Virus record (IMG/VR): IMGVR_UViG_2548876945_000012
Length of the DNA stretch: 24,914 bases
Strand: one strand, 5' to 3'
DNA from: a virus
Lineage: Duplodnaviria; Heunggongvirae; Uroviricota; Caudoviricetes
The translations under genes were made by a program, and so were the position numbers. The notes beneath the pieces were generated by a model. The model had not been told where the DNA came from, ran no database searches, and saw nothing but the letters and a program-made list of their open reading frames with translations. Below are positions 19,715 through 20,871 of the stretch, in pieces. Within the stretch, counting starts at the first letter, position 1; the number at the start of each line of letters is the position of its first letter.

Positions 19715-19921
19715 ATGCACAAAACAGAACCCAAAATCGTCGCGCCTGGCTACACAGATGAGGAAATTTATGAGTGGATGACAAAGAAGCTGGCAGCTAT
19801 AAACCAGCTTCGTGAAGTGCTGTCTTATCGACAGGAAACAATAGACTCCTTAAAAAAACTGGATCAGGAAATCACGGTTTTATCACAGGATGTTACTTTA
19901 GATATTGTGCAGACAAATTAG
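19715..19921 (+). CDS. Hypothetical small acidic protein (first gene after PL/boxA)
   Basis: ATG at 19715 with GGAGG 6 nt upstream; 68 aa; not arginine-rich, so not N-like. Confidence 0.45.
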   Translation: MHKTEPKIVAPGYTDEEIYEWMTKKLAAINQLREVLSYRQETIDSLKKLDQEITVLSQDVTLDIVQTN

Positions 19922-20327
19922 GATCCCATTCATTTTCGTCAAAATCATCAAAGTGATGAATTAGTGATCTCCAGTCTCGATAATCTAAAAATTTCTGGGC
20001 GGTTACGCTTATTTTATCAAGTGTGAGTTCATCCTGAATTGAAAGAAGAAGTTCATCAAATTTCATCTCATTAATCTGTTTTGGCATCCAGTGATGCTTC
20101 ATCAGAATAAGGTGAACCAGAGCCTTTTTCCCATTCAACTGATTATAGGGAGTGCCGAATTTCTTCCGGTGCTCATGTAAGACAAGGTCCAGAAGAGTAA
20201 GTAATGTTGCCCTTGATTCAACTTTGCTTATTTCGACTGATGACACTACCCCACTGATTTCAATGCCCCGATACTTTCCAACATTTTCACAGTGGGATTT
20301 GTACAGCGTGTAGATATTACCGGACAT
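19893..20327 (-). CDS. Hypothetical protein, unknown function (accessory)
   Basis: 144 aa; ATG at 20327 with AGGA upstream; convergent with and overlapping the 3' end of the 68-aa gene by 29 nt; moderately AT-rich by eye. Confidence 0.45.
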   Translation of the reverse strand: MSGNIYTLYKSHCENVGKYRGIEISGVVSSVEISKVESRATLLTLLDLVLHEHRKKFGTPYNQLNGKKALVHLILMKHHWMPKQINEMKFDELLLSIQDELTLDKISVTAQKFLDYRDWRSLIHHFDDFDENEWDPNLSAQYLK

Positions 20328-20871
20328 TTCTTTTCCTTTTGCGTTGTTGGGGATAACCAGATTAACCGAATCCTTGTTGTTGGGGAATAACCAGGTCCAC
20401 CTCGCCTGATGTGGCTAAAAGCAGGCACATAACAGCTAAGTATTTTCAACCAGAGAGAATCCTTAGCGTTGTGGTGAATGCGGCTCAGCGCACGCGGGTT
20501 AAGGTTGAGGCTGACAGTCGACCTTCTGTGGATACCCACCCGCCTGGTGTGCAACCTTCGCCAGGCACCGGGAGGCACCCGGCACCACAACTTTATGCTG
20601 TGTGTAGTCCTGGCGGTACCAGTTTGTACCCTTGCTTCCGGCTGGTACCGTCCTTTTTACAAAACAGAGAAGAGCATCACCGGACGACGGGCTCATAACC
20701 CAATCCATCCGGGCGGCTGCCACCGCAGGTGTTCTTCTCTGTTTTGTGGAGAAACTAACCGCCCCTACGGGGGCATTTATGGAAATGTAATTGACTCAAT
20801 AATCGCCGGACGGTGAGGGCTTCCTTTTACCCGAATTCAGCGCGGTGCAGCGCATATACGTGGAGAACAAA

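Follow-up and report, generated by a model that had tools for sequence, protein, structure and literature searches.

A convergent ECs1072-family and YdfC-like gene pair occupies an exchangeable antisense cassette slot downstream of PL in lambdoid prophages

The window, as we call the whole stretch of 24,914 nucleotides (nt) analysed here (IMG/VR record IMGVR_UViG_2548876945_000012, Caudoviricetes), is a lambdoid prophage of the SfIV/SfV/e14/CPS-53 type. Directly downstream of its early-left (PL-like) promoter lie two small convergent genes: a YdfC-like gene for a protein of 68 amino acids (aa) in the PL sense, and an ECs1072-family gene for a protein of 144 aa on the opposite strand. The two genes form one cassette of a slot whose contents are exchanged among related phages. 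Sequence comparison shows the anatomy of this slot and the exchange of cassettes, and also that the antisense orientation and the pairing of the two families are conserved. We hold with moderate confidence that the pair in this slot is a lysogen-expressed moron that opposes PL in the manner of an excludon, perhaps consisting of a defence gene and its PL-driven inhibitor.

The first-pass annotation had described a convergent, overlapping pair just after the PL-like promoter, and this layout was confirmed (Table 1). The pair takes the place of an N-like first gene of PL, within a variable accessory region, and the 68-aa protein is acidic, as had been stated (12 Asp/Glu versus 8 Lys/Arg). Both open reading frames (ORFs) are annotated as genes in RefSeq. 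The ratio of nonsynonymous to synonymous substitution rates (dN/dS) was about 0.2 for the 144-aa gene (window versus locus L018) and about 0.45-0.5 for the 68-aa gene (window versus locus L019). Therefore, both ORFs look coding and under purifying selection.

The homology break-points around the pair are nested: those with SfV are at 19626 and 20397, and those with PhiR49_1 are at 19674 and 20343. PhiR49_1 keeps both repeats upstream of the 144-aa gene, as well as the minus-strand terminator, and has a different antisense gene. Replacement of the pair between conserved backbone genes in related phages is the mark of a moron. An exact-match scan of IMG/VR with R2, the second of the two repeats (20366-20395, minus strand), found at least 120 loci (L021-L140). 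Among the matches listed, to which the following counts of cassettes refer, at least 15 cargo types lie between R2 and the conserved terminator. The main cargo ORF is always antisense to PL, and the same terminator follows each. One cargo is the ECs1072 and YdfC-like pair, in three diverged subtypes. The others include uncharacterised coiled-coil and zinc-ribbon proteins, proteins of about 150-190 aa with two transmembrane segments (2-TM "MTRDD" proteins, which start with these residues, with a weak PADLOC 2TM-effector match, E 0.01), a signal-peptide protein weakly similar to the lysozyme inhibitor LprI (E 0.006), and an uncharacterised protein of 167 aa; example loci are L032, L097, L068, L128, L110, L081, and L100. 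None of these other cargos has a convincing match to a known family or falls in a known defence family, and their further PADLOC matches are weak (Type I restriction endonuclease, E 0.059; SspC, E 0.035). The 5' end of the slot (the conserved 5' block followed by R2) is joined to at least seven upstream backbones, and the 3' end to at least eight PL/operator types. The YdfC-like gene was found only in ECs1072-type cassettes. The two genes are inherited and exchanged together as one cassette. Such a position and layout are typical of lysogen-protecting genes.

Two direct repeats upstream of the 144-aa gene had been reported. The first copy, TTGTTGGGGATAACCAG at 20344-20360, was found as described; the second, TTGTTGGGGAATAACCAG, is located at 20377-20394 instead of 20375-20393 and has an insertion of 1 nt. 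A gapped pattern derived from the copies occurred at three sites in the window and at none in 100 shuffles. The third site, which had been missed, lies upstream of the 68-aa gene and is an inverted copy (19671-19685). The repeats are not conserved specifically with the 144-aa gene: R2 belongs to the slot backbone of unrelated cargos, and R1, the first repeat, is one arm of an inverted repeat that flanks the cassette. The direct repeat consists of two homologous leaders in succession, first R2, which is resident in the slot, and then R1, which belongs to the cassette; it is not a dedicated operator pair.

The inverted partner of R1 lies exactly at the opposite cassette boundary. In every cargo type with such an inverted pair, the arms start with AATCTGG and continue into a cargo-specific extension; 29 distinct end pairs form inverted repeats. 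When 18 distinct end pairs were aligned, changes on both sides were observed at 6 of 14 positions (13 cells). This covariation was reached by none of 500 shuffles, and the pairing collapses once the register is slid. The cognate end duplex has an energy of approximately -24 kcal/mol, versus -9 for shuffled ends. Assignment of the pairing to one strand was tried and abandoned, the G-U counts being identical on both strands; since G-U pairs are equally frequent on either strand, selection on one RNA, on both RNAs, and on DNA are indistinguishable. In 23 of 28 types the full-length end duplex has a slightly higher stability on the PL strand, a difference on which no weight is placed. An invertible segment of the Hin/Gin/Pin type was also rejected: inverted repeats are present, but the cargo has one orientation in about 109 loci. 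In e14, SfV, Yersinia, and Pectobacterium there is a single homologous leader and no flanking inverted repeat.

Neither protein had been assigned to a recognised family, and both assignments can now be made. The 144-aa protein falls in NCBIfam NF033230 (ECs1072 family phage-associated protein) with a full-length match of 156 bits against a cut-off of 70, residues 4-144 being aligned on profile positions 2-142. It also matches phrog_5286 (E 1.5e-89). An exhaustive profile search collected 82 representative sequences of the ECs1072 family, nearly all 145-155 aa long. The conserved positions comprise an HR pair, G-x-x-AL-x-H, a tryptophan near residue 80, and a C-terminal EW-x-P. The AlphaFold model is confident and all-alpha, with a predicted local distance difference test score (pLDDT) of 80 and a predicted template-modelling score (pTM) of 0.79. 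Of the checks that had been proposed for the pair, remote homology search gave named families for both proteins, and structure prediction gave the all-alpha model of the 144-aa protein, in which neither a fold nor a domain was recognised. The 68-aa protein is YdfC-like (Qin prophage; PHROG 1744). Compared with annotated YdfC-family genes of Qin-type phages, 66 of its 68 residues align with 41% identity (E 2e-9), so that the similarity to YdfC proteins extends along the whole length, and it matches phrog_1744 (E 6e-35). No Pfam or NCBIfam model matched it, and PADLOC-DB 2.0 gave 0 families. Homology to known lambdoid early genes had been named as an argument against a defence role; homology was found in part, in that the families are named, but they are uncharacterised. 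NF033230/PHROG 5286 and the YdfC-like family are catalogued names, with function unassigned. Literature searches found no paper on ECs1072 function, and WP_000016389 was not found in the text searched; the only mention of ECs1072 that they yielded concerns O157 Sakai, in which its microarray signal was regulated.

Other assignments of the 144-aa protein were rejected. Gifsy GiPD474 is an unrelated ATPase. For a HEPN-domain defence protein such as Tha, the combination of an Rx4-6H motif and a four-helix HEPN fold was not found. Type III toxin-antitoxin systems (ToxIN/AbiQ/CptIN) of the ToxIN type consist of tandem repeats of about 34-45 nt, which form the antitoxin RNA, a terminator, and then an endoribonuclease of the ToxN fold. 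In the window there are only two repeat copies, which share 17-18 nt of a 33-34-nt period, and the repeats lead into the gene with no terminator between. The leader is less structured than shuffled sequences, and the protein is predicted to be all-alpha, with no ToxN-like match and no PADLOC match. It should be added that ten separate stretches of a protein of 4,088 aa (P0060) match the C-terminal part of the ECs1072 profile; this may be a repeat protein or an artefact.

The position of the 144-aa gene is conserved among its homologues. ECs1072 homologues with 71%, 58%, and approximately 31% identity are present in E. albertii, in an unrelated backbone (L019), and in Yersinia and Pectobacterium, respectively. 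All of them lie between an S24 repressor and the early-left operon, always antisense to the operon. Placement antisense to PL is therefore a conserved feature across E. coli, Yersinia, and Pectobacterium. Each of these loci also has a small PL-sense gene that converges on the homologue and extends over its 3' end; the overlap is about 50 nt in L019, as against about 190 nt in the Yersinia and Pectobacterium loci. The YdfC-like partner has 71% identity in L018 and 51% in L019, and L041 has an orthologous pair as well. For the 117-aa partner in Yersinia and Pectobacterium, hhalign aligned the N-terminal 33 residues with the YdfC-like protein at a probability of 92% (E 5e-7). SieB adjoins the ECs1072 homologue in one Yersinia locus. 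The pairing of ECs1072 and YdfC-like genes is frequent and old, not absolute.

The transcription signals are arranged around this antisense layout. The cargo-strand terminator that closes the slot lies beyond the 5' end of the 68-aa gene, and a G-U pair makes its hairpin stronger on the minus strand. It is kept after all cargo types and also in L019 and L022. Farther towards PL, the conserved leader holds a hairpin and T run that read as a terminator on the antisense strand only. This leader is conserved over at least eight hetero-immune PL/operator types, and also at 6156-6172 of L011 and 5695-5711 of L006. The antisense terminator in it resembles a guard against the entry of cargo transcripts into PL and cI. 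Because these minus-strand terminators lie beyond the start of the 68-aa gene, the predicted transcript of the 144-aa gene is antisense to the entire 68-aa gene and stops before PL and cI. From the ORFs and these terminators, the transcripts of the pair are predicted to overlap by about 290 nt.

These features suggest the following mechanism. In the lysogen PL would be repressed, and the 144-aa gene would be transcribed from a weak or activator-dependent promoter of the slot itself. Its mRNA would run antisense over the whole 68-aa gene to the two minus-strand terminators. After induction, transcription from PL would proceed head-on through the 144-aa gene and the 68-aa protein would be made. 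The 144-aa gene might then be silenced by collision and antisense RNA, which is the behaviour of an excludon (noncontiguous operon). The mutual antagonism proposed earlier for the convergent pair is a reasonable inference, because the e14 pair ymfI/ymfJ, which has the same design, is listed as a convergent excludon on the basis of RNA sequencing (RNA-seq). The 144-aa protein would most likely serve a function of benefit to the lysogen, for example the exclusion of other phages or an abortive defence against them. The YdfC-like protein, made from PL, might be its off-switch, as in the Tha/Ith system. By analogy with that system, we propose that ECs1072 would be a protein of benefit to the lysogen, probably anti-phage, and that the YdfC-like protein would switch it off.

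Several observations weigh against a lysogen-expressed protection gene with a dedicated inhibitor. A scan found no sigma-70 promoter for the cargo strand in the window or in a related cassette. Alignments alone point to a candidate -10 element, TAATCT, with no recognisable -35 element; its counterparts are TATAAT in L022-type cassettes and TGnTATGCT/TATCTT/TATCCT in e14, Pectobacterium, Yersinia, and SfV. Such an element would be consistent with a promoter that is weak or depends on an activator. A further weak point is that the leader of the 144-aa gene is unstructured (z = +1.95). The plus strand also has a terminator-like hairpin at 19996-20011, within the antisense of the 144-aa gene and at a distance of 75 nt from the end of the 68-aa gene. 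Unless they are antiterminated, PL transcripts could end here without crossing most of the 144-aa gene. For the 144-aa protein, Foldseek against BFVD gave nothing with E <0.5, there was no match to a solved structure (PDB), and a profile search of PDB sequences was empty. No Pfam match was found for it or in 41 members of the ECs1072 family, PADLOC-DB 2.0 gave 0 defence families, and it is absent from the DefensePredictor supplements. In addition, the homologue in L010 (55% identity) has no YdfC-like partner, and Qin-type phages have YdfC-like genes without ECs1072. Because of these exceptions, the pairing could reflect shared descent, not function. A 97-aa antisense ORF after ydfC in Qin-type phages was considered as an ECs1072 homologue and rejected; it has no homology and looks spurious.

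A bolder form of the proposal is tentative and in our view doubtful: the pair might be a new prophage immunity module, with a lysogen-made effector of a new fold that is switched off at induction by the small PL-driven protein and head-on transcription acting together, much as in Tha/Ith, and riding in a slot whose co-varying inverted repeats are functional (as an RNA stem or a recombination site) and through which SfIV/e14-type phages trade at least 15 kinds of lysogen-expressed genes. If the genes are indeed lysogen-expressed protection genes, the slot would supply at least 15 small proteins as candidates for immunity or exclusion, one of them with a new all-alpha fold. Expression antisense to PL, a logic built into the slot, could then explain how the prophage avoids self-harm on induction. 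The co-varying inverted repeats are a testable feature of the exchange of accessory genes in mosaic phage genomes. The pair is found in about 400 of 5,426 complete E. coli genomes, yet the cargos of the slot are without known function.

Alternatively, the pair could be a prophage-internal regulatory or host-modulating module. The YdfC-like gene would then be an ordinary early gene, ECs1072 would modulate induction, cell division, or expression of the early operon, and the antisense layout would do no more than adjust the read-through from PL into the small RNA and xis/int downstream. The YdfC homology, the parallel order of ydfC and a small RNA (DicF in Qin, STnc100-like in the window), and the lack of similarity to any defence family all agree with this, as does the location of the slot between PL and the small RNA, xis, and int, which antisense transcription would affect. 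We nevertheless regard it as rather unlikely, as unrelated cargos (2-TM and secreted proteins) replace the pair and the phage backbone is kept. Such swaps without loss of the backbone mean that the cargo is dispensable for phage regulation. Moreover, Qin-type phages have no real antisense gene after ydfC.

Less probable again is a model in which the repeats are activator sites, bound by a regulator of the 186-CII type or, at the RNA level, by CsrA on the AAGGA motifs, and in which the 144-aa gene gives a transient anti-PL transcript, for example during establishment of lysogeny. In the alignment reading, the -10-like TAATCT lacks a -35 element, and relative to it R2 would span about -14 to -43; a PF06892 CII (CP76) protein is encoded in the window. 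The unstructured leader has two ACAAGGA/AAAGGA motifs 34 nt apart, and L010 retains two tandem units despite strong divergence. Against these points, the motif is found nowhere else in the window, for example not where a CII-dependent cI promoter would lie. R1 varies with the cargo and is absent from LprI-like cassettes, and e14, Yersinia, Pectobacterium, and SfV have only the single leader. The covariation of R1 with its inverted partner 650 nt away is unexplained by an operator model.

The least probable explanation, which we consider improbable, is that the cassettes are non-autonomous mobile elements, of the kind of mobile insertion cassettes (MIC) or miniature inverted-repeat transposable elements (MITE), or site-specific recombination cassettes, with cargos inserted and swapped at the inverted repeats and the direct repeat as a scar of successive insertions: the shared AATCTGG start of the terminal inverted repeats with its cargo-specific extensions, the PhiR49_1 junctions exactly at the repeats, the same module ends in several different backbones, and the equal G-U counts, which favour no RNA strand, would fit it (the ends presumably resemble those of IS10), but there is no target-site duplication, no cassette copy outside the slot in the sampled E. 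coli genomes, no inverted cassette in the loci above, and no cognate recombinase linked to the slot, and homologous recombination in the conserved flanks would equally explain the exchange.

The slot lies in a common prophage backbone. Shigella phage SfIV and 401 of 5,426 complete E. coli genomes carry the 1.39 kilobases around the pair with 98-99.6% identity, and some part of the surrounding backbone is present in more than half of the 5,426 genomes. Beyond the pair, the plus strand carries yfdR/yfdS/yfdT-like genes, a gene for an excisionase-like helix-turn-helix protein, and a tyrosine integrase gene (22293-23456). A tRNA-Thr(CGT) gene at 23471-23546 (minus strand) abuts the integrase gene and marks the prophage end and attachment site, which we take to be of the thrW type.

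The downstream neighbour of the slot on the PL strand is an STnc100-like structured RNA with its own terminator; STnc100 is treated in the literature as a prophage small RNA. A weak DicF-like match is located inside this stretch, at 20599-20653. The order of the ydfC-like gene and the STnc100-like RNA parallels that of ydfC and dicF in Qin. The stretch is mis-annotated in RefSeq as a frameshifted hypothetical protein and, in e14 of K-12, as the coding sequence ymfH. GC-rich, apparently structured non-coding stretches occupy the STnc100-like position in L010 (5580-5900), L019, and L032, and none of them reaches the Rfam gathering score. The upstream flanks of L019, L032, and L038-L041 have a different stretch of this kind for each backbone.

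Table 1. Positions of the gene pair, the slot elements, and neighbouring features in the window
Feature	Position	Strand	Remarks
68-aa YdfC-like gene	19715-19921	+	First gene after PL; ORF listed as 19700-19921; ATG at 19715; GAGGAGG Shine-Dalgarno sequence
144-aa ECs1072-family gene	19893-20327	-	AAGGA 8 nt before ATG
3'-end overlap of the two genes	19893-19921		29 nt
R1, first repeat	20343-20363	-	Right arm of cassette inverted repeat; leader of 144-aa gene; cassette-specific
R2, second repeat	20366-20395	-	CCTGGTTATTCCCCAACAACAAGGATTCGG; slot backbone; upstream of at least 15 cargos
Conserved 5' block of slot	20396-20428	-	GTGCCTGCTTTTAGCCACATCAGGCGAGGTGGA; common to at least 7 upstream backbones
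Left arm of cassette-flanking inverted repeat	19668-19687	unstranded	AATCTGGTCCCCATCAACAA; coincides with PhiR49_1 junction 19674
Cargo-strand intrinsic terminator	19637-19656	-	AAGCGTCCTGTAGGGCGCTT then TTTTTT; closes slot
Candidate -10 element TAATCT	20359-20364	-	No recognisable -35; read from alignments only
Conserved PL leader of hetero-immune phages	19563-19630	+	Holds antisense-strand hairpin and T run (19584-19568)
PL-like promoter TTGACA-16-CATAAT	19520-19547	+	11/12 matches; directly after repressor terminator
Intrinsic terminator of cI-like repressor gene	19492-19511	+	8-bp stem, then T run
S24 LexA-like (cI-like) repressor gene, ymfK type	18806-19480	+	Peptidase_S24, E 1.5e-26
cro-like gene	18515-18739	-	Immunity region
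186-CII-type regulator gene (PF06892, CP76; YmfL-like)	17920-18483		Immunity region
STnc100-like structured RNA	20438-20660	+	RF02076, 43.1 bits against gathering score 47, E 1.3e-7; own terminator

Parts of this picture are already known: the gene families are catalogued, the convergent layout of e14 has been recorded, and morons and prophage hotspots are established. A literature search found no description of a slot with conserved ends, cargos that are all antisense, and inverted repeats that co-vary for each cargo. The pairing of ECs1072 and YdfC-like genes also appears undescribed.

The closest relative in layout is e14, which has the same backbone as the window: a ymfK-type repressor, PL with the same PL-like site, the conserved leader, and the STnc100-like stretch. 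As in the window, the first PL gene (ymfJ) is met by an antisense gene (ymfI), with a 3' overlap of 63 nt and a homologous antisense leader. Induction of ymfJ is reported to come late in the SOS response and to be much stronger than that of ymfI. The e14 proteins are unlike those of the window pair, as judged by reading the sequences alone. In addition, e14 differs in its single leader copy and has neither flanking inverted repeats nor a counterpart of the cargo-strand terminator at 19637-19656. SfV (L003, U82619) has the same design as the window and e14: an unannotated antisense ORF of 81 aa (2888-3133, minus strand) with a good ribosome-binding site converges on orf33 and overlaps it.

The ydfABC-dicF-dicB region of Qin resembles the window in that a small YdfC-family protein on a repressor-controlled early transcript is followed by a prophage small RNA. 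Qin-type phages differ from the window in having no ECs1072 gene, and the small RNA is of a different family (STnc100-like in the window, with the weak DicF-like match only). Lambdoid morons and prophage defence hotspots (lambda rexAB/sieB, BstA beside the repressor, P2/P4) likewise have a variable position in a conserved backbone, their own terminator, and many unrelated small cargos, including membrane proteins; SieB is itself the neighbour in the Yersinia locus. The slot of the window differs from these in that no cargo matches a known defence family, every cargo is antisense to the early operon, the cargos are bounded by co-varying inverted repeats, and the leader is duplicated.

Finally, in the Tha/Ith system of S. 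aureus prophages, the inhibitor of a prophage defence protein is the product of a small gene that overlaps the defence gene in antisense, and the defence gene is switched off at induction. This antisense layout balances immunity against autoimmunity. The window pair is similar in that a small antisense gene overlaps the end of a larger gene located beside the repressor, and in that the two are conserved as a pair. Expression states tied to lysogeny and induction would be a further likeness. By contrast with Tha/Ith, it is the large gene of the window pair that is antisense, and the small gene is part of the lytic PL transcript.

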